From a virus (lineage: Duplodnaviria > Caudoviricetes): a stretch of DNA of 64,000 nt. The first letter of the stretch is position 1, and each line of letters begins with the position of its first letter. The notes below the pieces were generated by a model that was given only the letters and a program-made list of their open reading frames with translations, was not told the origin of the DNA and did not search any database. The position numbers and the translations under genes are program-made. Location of the stretch: positions 64,001 through 128,000 of IMG/VR virus record IMGVR_UViG_3300001528_000621, one strand, 5' to 3'. Of this stretch, positions 292 to 40,042 are shown in pieces.

Positions 292-1214
292 TGGGGAAAA
301 AGATACCTGAAAAAGTAAAGGAAATACAGGATTTCAAACTAAAACAAGAGGCTGGCTCTAAAAGCATAAGCTTTAGCCAGCTTTCTGTTTACTTGAATTG
401 TCCGAAATGCTGGGAAAGAGCATACCTAAGGAAAGAGCAAGTTTACCAACCAAGTATTCATACTTGCTTTGGTTCAGCCTTTCACGAAGTTTTACAGAAT
501 TGGCTTGGAGTTCTTTATAACGATACAGCTAAAGCAGCTGACAGTTGTCAATTAGATCAGCAACTTTTAGACTCAATAAAGACTCACTATGTAGTTGAGA
601 GAGCTAAAATTAAGCAAGATTTCTCAGACAGTGCAACACTTACTGAGTTTTATGAAGACGGTGTTGCTATTCTCGACTACATAAAAAAGCATAGGAGAGC
701 ATTGTTTCCTAGCAATAAAACAACCTGGCTTGTGGGTTGTGAAATTCCGATATATACAAAGTTAAGAGAAAAATTCTTCTTTAAAGGGTTTATTGATATC
801 TTGACCTATGAAGAGGATAGGGGTGTGTGGAAAATTTGGGATATAAAGACTTCAACAAGAGGATGGTCTGCAGAGAAGACAGACTTTGTTAAGACATCTC
901 AGGTCCTACTCTATAAAGAGTTCTTACACCGTCAATTCAATATACCGTTGGAGAAGATTGAGGTAGAATACTTCATAGTCAAACGTAAGATTATAGAGGA
1001 TGCAGAATTTGCAGCAATGCGTAAGAGAGTTCAGGAATTTGTGCCAAATGACGGACCTAGAATTCATAAGAAAGTTGTAGGGCAGGTAGAATCGTTCTTA
1101 GCAGAAGCTCTTGATATTGAAGGAGAATATGTAGATAAGGACTATCCAAAAAACCCTTCAGAAAAAAACTGCAAATGGTGCTTGTTTAAAGATACCTGTA
1201 GGACCCATGTATAG
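288..1214 (+). CDS. PD-(D/E)XK (RecB/Cas4-like) exonuclease
   Basis: SFSQL..Y..CP, GFIDIL, WDIKTS, C-terminal CKWC...C. Confidence 0.85.
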   Translation: MMGKKIPEKVKEIQDFKLKQEAGSKSISFSQLSVYLNCPKCWERAYLRKEQVYQPSIHTCFGSAFHEVLQNWLGVLYNDTAKAADSCQLDQQLLDSIKTHYVVERAKIKQDFSDSATLTEFYEDGVAILDYIKKHRRALFPSNKTTWLVGCEIPIYTKLREKFFFKGFIDILTYEEDRGVWKIWDIKTSTRGWSAEKTDFVKTSQVLLYKEFLHRQFNIPLEKIEVEYFIVKRKIIEDAEFAAMRKRVQEFVPNDGPRIHKKVVGQVESFLAEALDIEGEYVDKDYPKNPSEKNCKWCLFKDTCRTHV

Positions 1215-1275
1215 TCCTTGTAATCTCAAATAAAGTAACTATCTTTATATTATAAAAATTAGATAAAACAATTAT

Positions 1276-2724
1276 ATGTCAAATCTTAAAAAAGGATATG
1301 TGGAACCTGGATCTCGGAAAAAGATACTACTTCTATCTGATGATCTCAGGTTTCCATCCGGGGTTGGTACAATTAGTAAGGAGATAGTTCTAGGAACTTG
1401 TCACAAATATAACTGGGTACAGCTAGCAGCTGGAATAAACCACCCTGATCGAGGTAAAATTATAGATCTTAGTGAATCTGCTTCTAAAGATACAGGTGTA
1501 CCGGATCCTAATATTAAGCTTTTACCTTCGGATGGATACGGTAATCCAATACTTCTTCGACAAGTAATAGCTTCAGAAAAGCCAGACGCTATTATGATTT
1601 TTACAGATCCTAGATACTGGGTTTGGCTATTCAGTATGGAAAGGGAGATTAGGAGTCATATTCCTATCATATACCTAAACATTTGGGACGATCTTCCATA
1701 TCCAATGTATAACAAAAGCTACTACAGGTCTTGTGACGGTTTGTTTGGAATAAGTAAGCAGACAGTTAACATAAATCGAGTAGTTCTTGGAGATGAAGCT
1801 AATGAACATACAATTAAGTATCTTCCTCACGGAGTAAGTTCTCAGTTTAAACCTCTTTCTAAAGACGATCCGGAACTGAAGTCTTTTGTGGACAGCACAT
1901 TCGGAAATAATAAACCAGAGTTTACTCTTTTTTACAATGCTCGAAATTTAGGTAGAAAGAGAACATCAGACATCATCTTAGCTTGGAGTGAGTTCTGTAA
2001 GCAGATACCAAAAGAGAAAGCAGATAGATGTCTTTTGTATCTACATACGGATCTGGTGGACAATGCAGGTACAGACCTCGGAGCTGTAATTCGGGCTTTT
2101 TGCGATCCTAACTACTGTCACGTTCATGTAGACCAGAATAGATATGACACTAAGACTTTGAACCTACTCTACAATATGAGCGATGGAGTCATTTTGATAT
2201 CTTCAGCAGAAGGATGGGGTTTGTCTGCTACTGAAGCTCTCAGGACCGGAAAAATGATCATAGGTTCAGTAACAGGGGGTATTCAGGATCAGATGAGATT
2301 TGAAGATGAGAATGGAAATTGGATTGACTTCAATAAAGACTTTCCATCTAACCATACAGGTCTCTACAAAAAGCACGGAAACTGGTGTATTCCTATATAC
2401 CCGAACAACAGAGCTCTTGTAGGATCACCTCAGACTCCGTATATTTTCGACGATAGGGTATCGGTAGAGGATACCGTAGAAGCTATTCTTAAGCTTTATC
2501 AGATGCCTAAAGAGGATCGAGAAAAGTTTGGAGCTGAAGGAGAAAAATGGGCTACTTCTGATGAAGCCGGGTTTACTTCTGAAAAAATGTCCGAAAGGTT
2601 TATTGAAGCTACAGACGAGGTGCTTGAAAGATTTAAACCTAGAGCTAAATATGAGTTCATTAAGGTTGATACAGAAAGACCTTCTACTAAAGTTGACTAC
2701 AATCCAGTATATTATAGAAAATAA
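1276..2724 (+). CDS. GT-B glycosyltransferase (GT4-like)
   Basis: SGVG N-terminal loop, PHGV, RN.GRK, EGWGLSATEA. Confidence 0.85.
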   Translation: MSNLKKGYVEPGSRKKILLLSDDLRFPSGVGTISKEIVLGTCHKYNWVQLAAGINHPDRGKIIDLSESASKDTGVPDPNIKLLPSDGYGNPILLRQVIASEKPDAIMIFTDPRYWVWLFSMEREIRSHIPIIYLNIWDDLPYPMYNKSYYRSCDGLFGISKQTVNINRVVLGDEANEHTIKYLPHGVSSQFKPLSKDDPELKSFVDSTFGNNKPEFTLFYNARNLGRKRTSDIILAWSEFCKQIPKEKADRCLLYLHTDLVDNAGTDLGAVIRAFCDPNYCHVHVDQNRYDTKTLNLLYNMSDGVILISSAEGWGLSATEALRTGKMIIGSVTGGIQDQMRFEDENGNWIDFNKDFPSNHTGLYKKHGNWCIPIYPNNRALVGSPQTPYIFDDRVSVEDTVEAILKLYQMPKEDREKFGAEGEKWATSDEAGFTSEKMSERFIEATDEVLERFKPRAKYEFIKVDTERPSTKVDYNPVYYRK

Positions 2725-3983
2725 TGAGTAAGATAATTTGTTATATATCAGCTCCAGTTGATTCTTACAGTGGGTACGGACGTAGAGCTCTTGACCTTGT
2801 AGAACAGTTAATGATCATAAAGCCAGATTGGGATATCAGAATTCTTTCTCAGAGATGGGGAGATACCAGAATGGGATATCTTGAAGATCATGAGAAATGG
2901 GAGATCATTAGTAAGCTTGTACCTAACATAACAACAAAGCCAGATGTTTGGATTCAGGTTACAGTTCCGAACGAATTTCAGGCTGTAGGAAGATTTAACA
3001 TAGGCATAACAGCAGCTATAGAGACAACGCTTTGTGACGTAAGCTGGGTTGAGGGATGCAACAGGATGGATCTGGTCTTGACATCATCAGAACACGGAAA
3101 ACATTCTCTCATAGATACAAGATACATAAACAACAATACCGGCCAGGAAATCAAGGTGACAACGCCGGTAGAAGTTCTGTTTGAAGGAATAGATACGGAA
3201 ATCTTCTATAAGAAAGACGTACCGGAAAAGACAGAGGTTTTAGCTGGATTGAAGAATTCCTGGAACTTTATTTGTGTAGGACACTGGCTACAGGGTGTTT
3301 TTGGAGAAGATAGGAAAAATGTTGGATATACTCTAAAAGCGTTTCTAGAAGCATTTAAGGACACCGAAGGGCAGGTGCCGGGAATAATTCTAAAGACCTC
3401 TTCAGCTACAACGTCGTACATGGATCAGGAATCAATTCTCAACAAGATCTATGACATTGTAGAGTCTGTTCAGTATAAGAAGGGTATACCAAACATCTAT
3501 TTGCTTCATGGAGATCTGACAGAAAAGCAAATGAATGACGTTTATAATGATCCTAGAGTAAAGGCTATGGTTCTTTATACAAAAGGAGAAGGTTATGGAC
3601 GACCGTTCGCAGAATTTGCTACTATCGGAAAGCCGGTACTTACATCCGGTTGGTCTGGACACCGAGATTTCTTGGATGAAAAGATGACACCTATGATCGG
3701 TGGAACACTACAGAAGGTACATCCATCAGCTGTACAGCCGCATATGATTTTAGCAGAAGCATCTTGGTTTAAGCCGGATGATTCTCAAGCAGTTGCAGGT
3801 TGTCGAGAAGTATTCAAAAACTATACGTCTTGGTTGAAGAAAGCTGAAAGACAAGGGATGTCTCTATCTGTTATTAAGAACGTAGGAGCTATGGGAGATA
3901 GGCTGAACGATATTCTTACTGAATATGTACCGAAATTTCCAGAAAATGTCCATTTGAATCTACCAGAAGAACTATTAATTTAA
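2724..3983 (+). CDS. GT-B glycosyltransferase (GT4-like)
   Basis: SGYG, RKN, GEGYGRPFAEF, SGHRDF. Confidence 0.85.
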   Translation: MSKIICYISAPVDSYSGYGRRALDLVEQLMIIKPDWDIRILSQRWGDTRMGYLEDHEKWEIISKLVPNITTKPDVWIQVTVPNEFQAVGRFNIGITAAIETTLCDVSWVEGCNRMDLVLTSSEHGKHSLIDTRYINNNTGQEIKVTTPVEVLFEGIDTEIFYKKDVPEKTEVLAGLKNSWNFICVGHWLQGVFGEDRKNVGYTLKAFLEAFKDTEGQVPGIILKTSSATTSYMDQESILNKIYDIVESVQYKKGIPNIYLLHGDLTEKQMNDVYNDPRVKAMVLYTKGEGYGRPFAEFATIGKPVLTSGWSGHRDFLDEKMTPMIGGTLQKVHPSAVQPHMILAEASWFKPDDSQAVAGCREVFKNYTSWLKKAERQGMSLSVIKNVGAMGDRLNDILTEYVPKFPENVHLNLPEELLI

Positions 3984-3987
3984 GGAA

Positions 3988-4470
3988 ATGGAAGAAAAAT
4001 TTAACGAAACAGAACAAGAGGTTGTAAATTCATTTGTATGTTGTCCTCATTGCGGTAGCAGTCTTTGTTATCACCAAGATGAAGGTAATGGAGTAGAGTC
4101 GATGATATGTATGCAGTGTGGCTTTACTACTACAAATCAAATGCTAGAAGGTTCTGAAACAGAGAAAGCAGTAACAGCCAAGCATCCAACTCTTTACAAG
4201 GACCTTAAATTTAAGGATGTTCATGGTTTTATTTGGTACCCATCTGTAATAACAATACCGGGGGTAGGAATGGTTTACATCGACGGTTCATCTTCGGAGA
4301 ACTGGGAATGGACTTCAACGCCGATGAGGTCTTTGACTAGAAAAGAAAGAAGGTCTGGTAAGTACGGGAAAGAGCAATATATAGCTGTACCTTCTCAAAC
4401 TAAGCATTTCGGTAAAGATGGGTTTGTTCAAGCTCTTAATTCTTTAGGATTTTTTGGATATGAAAATTAG
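3988..4470 (+). CDS. hypothetical protein with N-terminal zinc ribbon
   Basis: CPHC...CMQC; tightly packed in operon. Confidence 0.7.
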   Translation: MEEKFNETEQEVVNSFVCCPHCGSSLCYHQDEGNGVESMICMQCGFTTTNQMLEGSETEKAVTAKHPTLYKDLKFKDVHGFIWYPSVITIPGVGMVYIDGSSSENWEWTSTPMRSLTRKERRSGKYGKEQYIAVPSQTKHFGKDGFVQALNSLGFFGYEN

Positions 4471-5116
4471 TTATGCTATAACAGTGTGTAACGAAGTTGA
4501 AGAGTTTAAAAGACTCTTTAACTTTCTTACATCAAACCAGTACTCTGTTCTAAAGGCTGGTGATGAAATTGTAGTTCTCGTAGATACTCCAAAACTTACA
4601 GCAGAATTGCAGATATTCTTGACATCTATTAAAGAAACTAAAAATGTTAAAGTTGTCTTTGATCAGGAAGGGTTTCAAGGGGATTTTGCTGCTTGGAAGA
4701 ATAAGCTGAACAAAGCTTGTAGCGGGGAGTTTATCTATCAGATCGATGCTGACGAGTACCCTAGTTTATCAACACTACAATATATTCATCAGGTTTTGGA
4801 CAAAAATCCAGATATAGAGCTTTTTGTTGTACCTAGAAGAAATACTGTAGAAGGACTAACTCAAGAGGACACACAAAATTGGAACTGGAAGGTTGAAGAG
4901 AAGGATGGACAGCAGCTTGTAAACTGGCCGGACTGGCAGTTCAGAATTTACAGGAACAACAGCTCTATTGTGTGGAAAGGTAAGGTGCATGAAAGGCCCG
5001 TAAACTACGAAAAGTTTGGATTCTTTCCAGATATGATGTGTCTTTATCATCCTAAGACTATCGAAAAGCAGCGTATGCAGAATCAGCTTTATTCTGAAAT
5101 TCAAAATGTACAGTAA
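4454..5116 (+). CDS. GT-A glycosyltransferase (GT2)
   Basis: ISYAITVCNE, IDADE, W.GKVHE. Confidence 0.85.
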   Translation: MDMKISYAITVCNEVEEFKRLFNFLTSNQYSVLKAGDEIVVLVDTPKLTAELQIFLTSIKETKNVKVVFDQEGFQGDFAAWKNKLNKACSGEFIYQIDADEYPSLSTLQYIHQVLDKNPDIELFVVPRRNTVEGLTQEDTQNWNWKVEEKDGQQLVNWPDWQFRIYRNNSSIVWKGKVHERPVNYEKFGFFPDMMCLYHPKTIEKQRMQNQLYSEIQNVQ

Positions 5117-36475: not shown

Positions 36476-36521
36476 TCAGCAGTTCTGTGACGTATTCCTG
36501 CTGACTAAAAATTAAAACATA
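36476..36521 (+). promoter_or_regulatory. preQ1 class I riboswitch-like element
   Basis: P1 TCAGCAG/CTGCTGA; loop TTC-TGTG-ACGTATT-C; A-rich tail ending AACATA pairs with TGTG; upstream of a YhhQ-family gene. Confidence 0.7.
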
Positions 36522-36527
36522 AAGTCA

Positions 36528-37166
36528 ATGAAAAAAATTCTTATTTTAGTGACAGCTCTTCTGCTGTCCATCGGTGCATCCGCACAAACAGATCTTCATT
36601 ATCTTCCAGTTACATTTTCTACGAACGGAACAAGTACGGTTGGAAAGGTATTTACAGCTTTAACTCTCCCTACAGAAAATACCGTAACCTATGTGGAGGT
36701 TCTTAAAACTGTTCAGGATCCAGACTATTACATTCAATTCTTTCACGAACAGAAGTTTTGGGAAGCTCCAATTTACGTGCATGCTGAGTTCCGAGACCAG
36801 AGCTGGTCTGGGTATGGAGAGACAATGCTTATGGTTGGAGGAGCTTTTGACGTCTTTACAAAGAATGGAATGATTGCTTTTGAACCTCTTTTGAGAATAG
36901 ATGGTGAAAAAAGAGATTGGGGTCATTTTCAGCCAATGTTTTCTGTCGTTACGGGACACGATTGGGGTAAATTTAATCTAAATTCATTTTCAGACTTCTG
37001 GTATGATTCAAACTACCTGAATAACGGATTTAATTGGTACTCTGAAGCTTGGGCTTATTTCAAAGTTTGGGAACACTTTCAATTAGGAGCTGTATTTTCT
37101 GCAAGCTATAACGAAAGCGTTAAGTTTTCTGCATCGGTAGCACCAGGATTAAAGATTATATTCTAA
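36528..37166 (+). CDS. DUF5020-like outer-membrane beta-barrel (Tsx-like channel)
   Basis: signal peptide, KFWEAPI..H.E, aromatic-rich strands, C-terminal F. Confidence 0.65.
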   Translation: MKKILILVTALLLSIGASAQTDLHYLPVTFSTNGTSTVGKVFTALTLPTENTVTYVEVLKTVQDPDYYIQFFHEQKFWEAPIYVHAEFRDQSWSGYGETMLMVGGAFDVFTKNGMIAFEPLLRIDGEKRDWGHFQPMFSVVTGHDWGKFNLNSFSDFWYDSNYLNNGFNWYSEAWAYFKVWEHFQLGAVFSASYNESVKFSASVAPGLKIIF

Positions 37167-37186
37167 TTGTAAAGGATATTTGAAAT

Positions 37187-37915
37187 ATGGGATTTTTGAT
37201 GAGTAACGAGGCTTTGTTCCTTATCCAGCTTATTGTCTCTTTTGCAGGGGTAATATTTGCGTATAAATTTTTCGGAAAGACAGGACTTTTTGTATGGGCA
37301 GGACTAATAACTGTTTATGCTAATCTAGAAGTTAATTCTTTCTTGACAATGTTCGGTCTAGCTGTTAGTCTAGGAAATATTGGATTTTGTAGTCTAAGTT
37401 TTGCTCAAGACATTACGAATGAACAGTACGGTAAAGATGTAGCAAAAAAACTGGTAACGGTAGGACTATTTTCCTCTATTGCAATCCTGGTTGTAAGCCA
37501 GCTTAGTTGTTTCTTCAAATGCGATGGAGGTAACTATGAAGCATTTGAGAGTGTATTTGCAGCATTACTCCCGATACTGGTTTCTAGCTTAACATCATAC
37601 TTCTGCTCTAATAGGTTAAATGTATTTTTGTATAATTGGATTAGACAAAGAACAGATAAAGACTGGATAAAAACTCAAGTTAGTTCTCAGACAGCACAGC
37701 TTTTTGATACAGTGTTCTTTACGTCTCTTTGTGTAGGTTGGGAAATTTTAGCAACAAAGACAGGAGCTGGATTTCTTCATACGTATTTTCCAACAGACTT
37801 TGGAACGTTTGTAGAACTTATTGTAACTTCATATATCATTAAAGCTATAATTGTTCTAGCTGAGATTCCAGGAATGTACTTTATGAGAAAAGTTGGAGCA
37901 CCGAAAGAAGTTTAG
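37187..37915 (+). CDS. yhhQ: queuosine precursor transporter (YhhQ/Vut_1)
   Basis: multi-TM; GN, D...E.YGK..A, AQLFDT..F. Confidence 0.85.
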   Translation: MGFLMSNEALFLIQLIVSFAGVIFAYKFFGKTGLFVWAGLITVYANLEVNSFLTMFGLAVSLGNIGFCSLSFAQDITNEQYGKDVAKKLVTVGLFSSIAILVVSQLSCFFKCDGGNYEAFESVFAALLPILVSSLTSYFCSNRLNVFLYNWIRQRTDKDWIKTQVSSQTAQLFDTVFFTSLCVGWEILATKTGAGFLHTYFPTDFGTFVELIVTSYIIKAIIVLAEIPGMYFMRKVGAPKEV

Positions 37916-37966
37916 TCTTTAAAGTTCAATAGAAATTTTTATCTTTAGCTTAGAAATAGAAAAGAT

Positions 37967-38224
37967 ATGAAAAACATACTTTCACTGCCAGATATTCCAT
38001 TCTACAGAAGTACATGCCCGTTTTGCGGCTGTGAATTTGAATATACAGCAGACGAGGCAGATTACTTGGAGTATGACGGTTATGTAGTTGTTTGTCCACA
38101 TTGCTTTAAGACTTTGCGTGTTGAGGATCCAAAACTACAAACACCGTGGAGACACGAACATCCGGAAAGGCCTGGTACATCAAATTTACCTGGGACAGTA
38201 AACATATGGAACAAAGAGTGCTAA
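37967..38224 (+). CDS. small zinc-ribbon protein
   Basis: CPFC...CPHC. Confidence 0.65.
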   Translation: MKNILSLPDIPFYRSTCPFCGCEFEYTADEADYLEYDGYVVVCPHCFKTLRVEDPKLQTPWRHEHPERPGTSNLPGTVNIWNKEC

Positions 38225-38895
38225 TAACGGGAACATCCCAGGGTATCGGTCTTGCTACAGCTAAAAGGTTTCTAGAAAGATCAGGTACTTTCGTTTTTGG
38301 CTTTGACAAACAACCTTGTCCGGAAGAGCTGGAGGGTCATAAGAGGTACACTCACTTTAATATTTCTGTAACAGATATTGAAGAGTTTGTTATTCTCGAT
38401 AAACTAGATTATGTTATCTGTAATGCAGGTATTCAGACAGCCCCAGAAGCTGGTAATGTAATGATGACAAACTTTTGGGGAGTTGATAACATAATCAGAA
38501 TGTATGCTCTTCAATCTTGCTGCAAAGGCATTGTCATTGTAGGTTCAGTCTCAGGCATAACAGGAGCAGAGTTTGATGAGTATGTAGCAAGTAAAGGAGC
38601 TCTTATACCGTACACAAAAGCTATAGCTAATAAAGTAGCTCAGTGGGGAGGAGTTTGCAACTGCATTGCACCTGGAGGAGTAATGACAGAACTCAATGAA
38701 CCGGTAATGGACAATCCAAAGCTCTGGGATAGAATAATGAACCTGACACCTCTCAAACGTTGGGCAGAACCTTCAGAGATAGCAGATTGGATTTATTTTC
38801 TAGCTACTCAAAGGTTCTGTACAGGACAGACTATTATCGTTGATGGAGGAGAATCAATCAAATCTAACTTTGTTTGGCCTTCATTAGAGTTTTAA
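38206..38895 (+). CDS. short-chain dehydrogenase/reductase
   Basis: TGTSQGIG, NAG, YVASK, PG, GQ.I.VDGG. Confidence 0.9.
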   Translation: MEQRVLITGTSQGIGLATAKRFLERSGTFVFGFDKQPCPEELEGHKRYTHFNISVTDIEEFVILDKLDYVICNAGIQTAPEAGNVMMTNFWGVDNIIRMYALQSCCKGIVIVGSVSGITGAEFDEYVASKGALIPYTKAIANKVAQWGGVCNCIAPGGVMTELNEPVMDNPKLWDRIMNLTPLKRWAEPSEIADWIYFLATQRFCTGQTIIVDGGESIKSNFVWPSLEF

Positions 38896-39034
38896 GGAGA
38901 ACGTAGGATGCTTTAAGGGACCTTTAATTCAAATGTCTTCATAAAGAAAGATATAAATTAAAGGTCCTTTTCTTTTGCTCCTTCAAAAATAATAACTATC
39001 TTTAGCTTAGAAATTAAAAACAAATAAACAGCAT

Positions 39035-40042
39035 ATGCAATATTCTCTGGATGAGTACACCTTAATTCCCAAAAGGATATCTAAAATTAGTTCTAGAAGA
39101 GATGTTCAGGTTCTTGACGATAATGGGAAGCTTCCTGTGTTTGTAGCTCCTATGACTTGTATTTTAGACAGAAACAATTTTAGTACTTTCAATAAATCTC
39201 CTTTCATTCCGGTTTATCCGGTCTGGGCTGGTGAAAATCTTGCTTCAAGACAAGTAGTACCGGGTTGGGTAGCTGTTACTCTTAAGGAGTTTGAAGAGCA
39301 ATTTGTACCTGATGAAGGGTGGTTGAGGGACCGTAAACCTCACAAAATCTTGATAGACTGTGCAAACGGTCATATGGAAAAGATTTATGATTTAGTTAGG
39401 AAAGCTAAAGCTCGCCCGGGCAACGCAGGGTTGGAAGTAATGGTAGGTAATATAGCTAACCCAGAGACATACAAAGATTGCTGCATGGCCGGAATAGACT
39501 ATGTTAGAGTAGGTATTGGAGGAGGTTCTGGATGCACAACCTCTGTTCAGACAGGTTTTCATGCTGGGATGGGATGGCTTTTAACTGAAATAGAGTATTA
39601 CAGAAGAGATATTAAGAATAACTGGAAGTTTCAAGAACCGATGACAATTACAAAGGTTGTTGCTGATGGGGGAATTAACACTATCTCAAAAGCTGTAAAA
39701 GCCCTAGCTCTGGGTGCTGACTATGTGATGATGGGTAAAATCTTTGCTCAATGTGAAGAAGCTTGTGCATTGAAAATTTCAGAGGAACAACCCTTCAGAC
39801 AGTACTACGGACAGGCGTCAGAGCAGGGACAAATAGATAGGTTTGGAGAAGTGAGGAATAACCCGGAAGGTCTAGAAACTCTCGTACACATAGAACATAC
39901 TTTGGATTCCCTTGCAACTAAGTTTAAGGATGTACTAGCCAGTGCGTGTTCGTACGCTGGAGCTTCAAACTTAAAAGAATTTATTGGACAGGTGAGGTGG
40001 GACGTTATTTCAAAATCAGAATTTAATTCGTTTAACAAATAG
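39035..40042 (+). CDS. IMP dehydrogenase/GMP reductase family protein
   Basis: APM, IDCANGH, VGIGGGSGCTT, ADGGI, ALGAD.VM.G. Confidence 0.9.
   Translation: MQYSLDEYTLIPKRISKISSRRDVQVLDDNGKLPVFVAPMTCILDRNNFSTFNKSPFIPVYPVWAGENLASRQVVPGWVAVTLKEFEEQFVPDEGWLRDRKPHKILIDCANGHMEKIYDLVRKAKARPGNAGLEVMVGNIANPETYKDCCMAGIDYVRVGIGGGSGCTTSVQTGFHAGMGWLLTEIEYYRRDIKNNWKFQEPMTITKVVADGGINTISKAVKALALGADYVMMGKIFAQCEEACALKISEEQPFRQYYGQASEQGQIDRFGEVRNNPEGLETLVHIEHTLDSLATKFKDVLASACSYAGASNLKEFIGQVRWDVISKSEFNSFNK

Follow-up and report, generated by a model that had tools for sequence, protein, structure and literature searches.

The ligand pocket of the preQ1-I type I riboswitch is formed by a closing G-C pair, U6 and U7 (with C8), U16 and C17, and an A-rich L3 carrying A30 and C31 (PMC11625349; PMC8752633). 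Control of yhhQ by preQ1 is known (PMC10622847), and so is phage-encoded YhhQ (PMC6884629). The only families previously known to transport queuosine (Q) precursors were QPTR/COG1738 and QrtT/QueT, and further candidates have been tested (PMC11130926). Here, we describe an RNA leader of a Bacteroidales phage, in the IMG/VR record IMGVR_UViG_3300001528_000621, which is complete (187,848 bp, with terminal repeats). The window analyzed was the stretch of 64,000 nucleotides (nt) at bases 64001–128000 of this record, with a G+C content of 38%. The leader is 55 nt long, with 52 nt from its first stem (P1) to the AUG, and it precedes a gene for a beta-barrel protein that is followed by a YhhQ-family transporter gene. 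With a reductase, these two form a conserved module that would take up the precursor of the tRNA base queuosine. The 55 nt before the barrel gene probably belong to the preQ1-I lineage and act as a riboswitch that turns translation OFF, which would sense preQ1 or the closely related preQ0, as judged from sequence comparison.

Structure of the leader

The leader was divided into the following parts, with the basis of each assignment in parentheses.

36476–36482, + strand: 5′ strand of P1, TCAGCAG, 7 nt, with the invariant closing G as its last base (covariation of P1 in aligned copies)
36483–36497, + strand: 15-nt loop that opens with TTC (UUC) and closes with UC, the specificity C being 36497 (bases likened to U6, U7, C8 and to U16, C17 of preQ1-I type I)
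36488–36491, + strand: 5′ strand of P2, UGAC, within the loop (fixed-register pairing with compensatory changes)
36498–36504, + strand: 3′ strand of P1, CTGCTGA (covariation of P1)
36505–36523, + strand: A-rich L3 tail with a conserved AAAAC-A-Y-AAA block and a conserved C at 36518 (invariance among bacterial copies and resemblance to the Rfam PreQ1 consensus tail)
36524–36527, + strand: 3′ strand of P2, GUCA, abutting the start codon (fixed-register pairing)

The whole A-rich tail before the ATG at 36528 comprised 23 nt (36505–36527). A first-pass annotation, made from the window's letters alone, had described the stem, a loop starting with TTC and ending in C, and an A-rich tail ending in AACATA 6 nt before the ATG, and all of these were found in place, with AACATA at 36516–36521.

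P1 was paired in 99% of the cells of 16 aligned copies. Compensatory changes occurred at six of its seven pairs, and none of 500 shuffles reached the observed covariation. The closing G-C was invariant across 13 distinct P1 helices, and UUC and UC were present in 13 of 14 copies. All pocket bases of preQ1-I type I were present by position in the window and likewise in 13 of the 14 copies, an equivalence that is positional only.

The second helix, P2, has a constant geometry: four bases located 6 nt upstream of the end of the loop pair with four others in the tail, 6–9 nt past the conserved tail C. The versions observed were UGAC/GUCA (the window type), UGAC/GUUA, GCCU/GGGC, GACU/GGUC, GCUU/GAGC, GGA/UCC, and GCC/GGU. 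In this fixed register, 26 of 28 positions paired among the seven distinct types; permuted tails gave a mean of 16.4, with a fraction of 0.002 reaching 26, and slid registers gave 6–13. By a formal count, compensatory change was found at three of the four pairs. The same register was used by a leader on another phage-like contig (L196a), with CUC/GAG, where the 3′ strand lies inside GGAG. The distance from the end of P2 to the start codon was 0–5 nt across copies, and P2 of the window touches the start codon. The P1 hairpin and the loop-tail P2 together correspond to the H-type pseudoknot of preQ1-I.

A different pseudoknot, UGUG in the loop with CAUA in the tail, had been proposed in the first-pass annotation. 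It was weaker: pairing holds in 67% of the cells, 10 of 16 copies have a mismatch at the third pair, and some of its positions are those of the covarying P2; it was kept as a possible alternative contact. An alternative hairpin between UGACU (in P1′) and AGUCA was rejected as not conserved, being present only in the window and the near-identical L004 and absent from the other three phage-type copies.

Conservation of the leader

The same leader was found before barrel homologs or homologs of the transporter family Vut_1 on phage-like contigs (L002, L003, L004, L071, L072, L073, and L191–L196) and in loci of Bacteroidales metagenome-assembled genomes (MAGs; L010–L017). It was also carried by metagenome contigs (L083, L084, L088, and L089). 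An exhaustive protein search gave only 35 barrel relatives, and further loci were reached via the linked short-chain dehydrogenase/reductase (SDR) and a DNA pattern. There were 13 distinct leader sequences, from phage-like contigs and Bacteroidales MAGs. To date, Bacteroidales MAGs and large phage-like contigs have been the sole sources of the expanded form seen in the window.

In the bacterial loci, the barrel proteins were 68–75% identical and the RNA core was identical, with variation only in the 5–6-nt linker after P1. An identical RNA core beside diverged barrels is the pattern that would be expected of a selected RNA. A covariance model built from the bacterial copies only (R1; P1 plus sequence) scored the window site at 30.4 bits. 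This was the best match across the 188-kb phage genome, in which the site is present once. The second R1 match in the window was rejected as a tRNA T-arm, as were the pattern matches L090 and L092, and two further pattern matches (L086 and L087) were discarded as random.

Comparison of the unit with 50,697 phage records by blastn gave no match, and close-homolog scans of IMG/VR with the barrel and YhhQ queries found nothing. One IMG/VR scan with the motif pattern gave only chance matches, which were removed by P1 pairing, and the other gave none. No motif copy was found in 80 viral QueC loci. In 151 Bacteroidota genomes, the canonical Rfam PreQ1 model gave a single match, which was sub-threshold and lay inside a large ORF encoded by the other strand.

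Some loci displayed unusual arrangements. In L191 (2131–2334), a short motif variant, a 16-codon open reading frame (ORF), and an intrinsic terminator lay in tandem with the expanded motif before Vut_1. In L195 (900–1061), the short variant and a terminator stood directly before Vut_1. The intrinsic terminator after the short variant in these two loci suggests that some relatives may act on transcription. In L193 (924–983), P1 was broken and Vut_1 was split over two ORFs. A MAG labelled Anaeromicropila (a Firmicute; L013) contained the operon in the order motif, barrel, Vut_1, and SDR, including the outer-membrane barrel, and also encoded QueC and QueF; this contig may be mis-binned or horizontally acquired.

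Association with queuosine genes

Described preQ1-I riboswitches lie in the leaders of queuosine synthesis and transport genes, and the element here was found before Vut_1/YhhQ units, queF-queC, and queC-queD. An identical motif preceded a QueF-like gene and then QueC in L085, and QueC and then QueD in L091, where the copy stood behind the same nonamer, TATCTTTAG, that recurs in the window. This gene association is the strongest argument for the ligand, and the gene set is that of the preQ1 regulon.

More canonical forms were found before Vut_1 genes on related contigs when scored with the Rfam PreQ1 model (RF00522; 45 positions, gathering score 39 bits). L196b scored 21.3 bits and had the typical ACUAGGAG tail, and L191a scored 12.7 bits. 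The Rfam consensus tail and the tail described here differ mainly by short insertions. Contig L196 (166 kb, phage-like; 640–4675) had the order formyltransferase, expanded motif, Vut_1, amidase, canonical-looking preQ1-I, second Vut_1, and SDR. This indicated two YhhQ paralogs, each behind its own preQ1-type leader. Taken together, leader conservation, gene context, the predicted barrel fold, and the neighbouring SDR support the core of the earlier proposal, in which a pseudoknot like that of preQ1 class I stands at the head of a unit, with a linked SDR, for uptake of Q precursors across the outer and inner membranes.

Proteins of the unit

Downstream of the leader, the unit contained the following features.

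36528–37166, + strand: secreted beta-barrel of 212 aa, predicted to be 12-stranded, a candidate outer-membrane channel (AlphaFold2, Foldseek)
37187–37915, + strand: YhhQ/COG1738-family (Vut_1) queuosine-precursor transporter (PF02592, TIGR00697)
37940–37948, + strand: phage promoter-like motif TATCTTTAG, inside the unit (overrepresented in the window)
37967–38224, + strand: small zinc-ribbon protein (weak Zn-ribbon profile matches)
38206–38895, + strand: classical SDR oxidoreductase (PF13561, PF00106)
38918–38976, + strand: terminator-like hairpin with a 12-bp stem, a long loop, and a T-run, closing the unit (read from the sequence)

The AlphaFold2 model of the barrel protein had a pLDDT of 91.4 and a pTM of 0.82, with about 12 strands and a signal peptide ahead. 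Foldseek matched it with probability 1.00 to PcoB, Tsx (TMq 0.66), NanC, and KdgM, with TMq of 0.57–0.66 and an identity of only 8–10%. The signal peptide and the closed antiparallel barrel of 12 strands are features of Tsx and KdgM/NanC, and this agreement is at the fold level only. Tsx passes nucleosides. The suggestion that the barrel is an outer-membrane channel was strengthened by a predicted model closest to PcoB, Tsx, and NanC. Its label as DUF5020-like was weakly supported: the window protein had no Pfam match at E ≤ 0.01, including DUF5020 (PF16412, gathering 36.7 bits), and DUF5020 matched five of ten tested barrel relatives at E values of 4e-7 to 6e-3, all below the cut-off. A relationship to DUF5020 would be at most distant.

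Barrel homologs adjoin Vut_1. More distant barrel homologs were found in 14 of 401 Bacteroidota genomes, with no motif, YhhQ, or SDR nearby. In L075 (83–4013), genes for a uracil phosphoribosyltransferase and a TonB-dependent receptor were followed by a more distant barrel homolog (34% identical). This context hints that the barrel family may serve nucleobase uptake more generally.

The transporter scored 115.7 bits with TIGR00697 (cut-off 50.95) and 95.1 bits with PF02592 (cut-off 27.2), which placed it in the YhhQ/COG1738 family as first annotated. Against the E. coli-type equivalog NF008406, it reached only 35.7, with a cut-off of 252. The order of the promoter motif, the zinc-ribbon protein, and the SDR after the transporter was also as described before.

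The SDR belonged to the classical type, with 81.3 bits for PF13561 and 67.6 bits for PF00106. None of the specific equivalog profiles reached its cut-off with this protein, and the solved structures related to it were generic FabG-like proteins only, which gave no clue to the substrate. In every related locus, the SDR next to Vut_1 shared 46–77% identity with that of the window, and an SDR adjoined this Vut_1 subfamily in every locus examined, in three gene orders. A functional link between the SDR and Vut_1 is likely from this gene neighbourhood. In two NCBI assemblies (L197, 2752–4154; L198, 3501–4953), SDR homologs (49% identical) stood beside Vut_1 without the barrel or the RNA motif, indicating that the SDR-Vut_1 pair is broader than the riboswitch. 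The zinc-ribbon ORF gave weak Zn-ribbon matches and had homologs in the same slot in L191 and L195; it was found in phage copies only and was absent from the bacterial operons.

The TATCTTTAG nonamer occurred 37 times in the window against 1.6 copies expected, nearly all on the + strand and before genes, at sites that include 36236, 37940, and 38997. It is likely a phage promoter element. A simple terminator scan missed the hairpin at 38918–38976 because of its long loop. Just after the unit, behind its own TATCTTTAG, there was a GMP-reductase/IMPDH-like gene (39035–40042; 120.7 bits with NF003966, below the cut-off), and in L002 the homolog of this gene instead precedes the barrel gene by about 3 kb.

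Probable use of queuosine in phage and host

The phage encodes the tRNAs Tyr(GTA), Asn(GTT), Asp(GTC), and His(GTG), which confirmed that all four GUN tRNAs are present, and NAU codons made up 55–68% of the relevant codon pairs. No transglycosylase (TGT/DpdA), QueC, QueD, or QueF was found in the complete phage genome, which makes it unlikely that 7-deazaguanine is written into phage DNA, one of the two uses considered in the first-pass annotation. Four operon-bearing Bacteroidales MAGs were inspected; Tgt was present in three of them, and none contained a true QueC or a QueF. Because the MAGs are incomplete, this evidence for a need of salvage is suggestive only. The gut Bacteroidales carrying the operon appear to be Q-precursor auxotrophs. 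Queuosine in tRNA, made through the host Tgt, seems likelier than DNA modification.

Proposed mechanism and alternatives

In the proposed mechanism, a 7-deazaguanine would stack on the closing G-C and pair with the loop-closing C36497. The ligand would then stabilize the A-rich tail in the P1 groove and P2 over positions −1 to −4. Bacteroidota initiate translation on unstructured A-rich leaders, with mRNAs that lack a Shine-Dalgarno sequence. Burying the A-rich leader would therefore remove the unstructured landing site of the ribosome and repress translation. With enough precursor in the cell, less of the outer-membrane channel would be translated and, by coupling, less of the YhhQ importer. 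The module would represent a salvage operon of the host type that travels with the phage, and it would probably raise queuosine in host and phage GUN tRNAs via the host Tgt.

Several points weigh against this interpretation. RF00522 missed the leader at its gathering threshold, at E ≤ 10 in a 221-nt slice, and among whole-genome matches down to 8.6 bits; the cmsearch proposed as a check thus left the element undetected, below 8.6 bits against a cut-off of 39. No other Rfam family fitted the site. The element exceeds every described preQ1-I type in length by about 20 nt, and the extra nucleotides around P2 prevent a direct transfer of the pocket from solved structures. The alignment of the copies (A6) was fitted to P1. 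A test of loop-tail complementarity in a free register was not significant for P2 (fraction 0.07), so the support for P2 comes from the fixed register. Copy counts overstate the number of independent events because several of only 13 distinct sequences are closely related. The motif is rare, occurring in one of 151 sampled Bacteroidales genomes, and many SDR-Vut_1 pairs lack it.

The first alternative explanation is that a preQ1-I scaffold was tuned to another ligand, such as queuine, a different 7-deazaguanine, a base resembling guanine, or a compound that the linked SDR consumes or produces. Changes of specificity are established among riboswitch variants (PMC11625349, section 8). The enlarged pocket region compared with all described types, the failure of Rfam PreQ1 to score the element, and the SDR that accompanies the Vut_1 subfamily in every locus would agree with such a change. 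However, the element preserves the specificity C as well as the closing G and the UU/UC bases, and copies of it stand before queF, queC, and queD, genes of the classical preQ1 regulon. QueF is also missing from the operon MAGs, as would be expected if preQ1 itself were needed. A different ligand is thus considered unlikely.

The second is that the conserved leader senses no metabolite but instead binds a protein or small RNA, affects mRNA stability, enhances translation, or serves as a thermometer. This would leave unexplained why every base that contacts the ligand in preQ1-I type I is retained, why unrelated families of one pathway (queC, queD, queF, and Vut_1) have a leader in common, and why a canonical-looking preQ1-I precedes the paralogous Vut_1 of L196. 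On the other side, covariation shows structure and not ligand binding, the folding energy alone is unremarkable, and the terminator after the related motif in L191 and L195 points to other modes of control in the family. We regard a leader without a metabolite as improbable.

With a minimum free energy of −8.4 kcal/mol, the leader hairpin has a z score of −0.98 and is equalled in folding by 31 of 200 shuffles; it was judged to be more than chance because it is conserved and covaries in other sequences, not because of its energy. A chance hairpin, or a terminator of the upstream 67-codon ORF, would suit this modest z score and the start of the hairpin 12 nt past the stop codon of that ORF, but it is hardly credible, since no U-run follows the hairpin, the stem covaries, and the hairpin stays with the downstream gene while the upstream genes vary among the motif loci.

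Implications

Should ligand binding by the proposed preQ1-type riboswitch be confirmed, the preQ1-I family would gain a larger type that is missed by the standard models. It would also show a pseudoknot riboswitch shutting off translation in Bacteroidota without Shine-Dalgarno pairing. The leader marks two unannotated partners of YhhQ, a candidate outer-membrane channel and an SDR, which stand outside current accounts of queuosine salvage. A phage with four GUN tRNAs, no transglycosylase, and a whole regulated module points to manipulation of queuosine in tRNA, not in DNA.

The expanded type, its presence in Bacteroidales, and its barrel and SDR partners were not found in Rfam or in the searched literature. 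We tentatively raise the possibility that class I preQ1 riboswitches include an expanded fourth type, which works on leaders without a Shine-Dalgarno sequence, and that the genes behind it make up a salvage route of three components, so far undescribed, in Bacteroidales and the phages that infect them. Such a route would consist of a dedicated Tsx-like 7-deazaguanine channel, the YhhQ importer, and the SDR as a missing salvage enzyme, perhaps converting an imported precursor to the Tgt substrate in organisms lacking QueF and QueC. This broader scheme is doubtful as a whole.

Comparison with known systems

The likeness of the barrel to Tsx, NanC/KdgM, and PcoB consists of the predicted 12-stranded monomeric fold and the signal peptide. 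It differs from them in that its gene sits in a Q-precursor import operon and its protein has no Pfam family.

In E. coli, translation of the YhhQ importer is likewise regulated by a preQ1 riboswitch, in the yhhQ leader (preQ1-I type III, PMC10622847). Type III, which is smaller and more stringent than the other types, carries AC at its specificity position and sequesters AAGG, a Shine-Dalgarno sequence (PMC10622847). The element described here carries UC instead, far exceeds type III in size, and is without a Shine-Dalgarno sequence.

With preQ1-I type I (RF00522; the Carnobacterium antarcticum structure, PMC8752633; reviewed in PMC11625349), the element shares the H-type pseudoknot and the P1 closed by G-C. 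Both have UU(C) straight after the 5′ strand of P1, UC with the specificity C straight before its 3′ strand, an A-rich L3 with a conserved AC, and P2 over the translation start region, and both are found before yhhQ, queC, queD, and queF. The minimal preQ1-I measures about 34 nt (5-bp P1, 2–3-nt L1, and ~8-nt L3), whereas P1 to AUG spans 52 nt here. The element is very probably, on sequence comparison, an expanded descendant of preQ1-I type I. Its P1 has 7 bp (6–9 across copies) compared with 5 in type I, and its loop has 15–17 nt compared with 12. P2 is separated from UUC by three additional nt and from the tail C by 5–6 additional nt. L3 is much longer, with roughly 19–25 nt compared with ~8, and contains the conserved AUUAAAAC-A-Y-AAA block. 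Unlike in preQ1-I type I, the leader here has no Shine-Dalgarno sequence, and the bases masked by P2 are those immediately adjoining the AUG.

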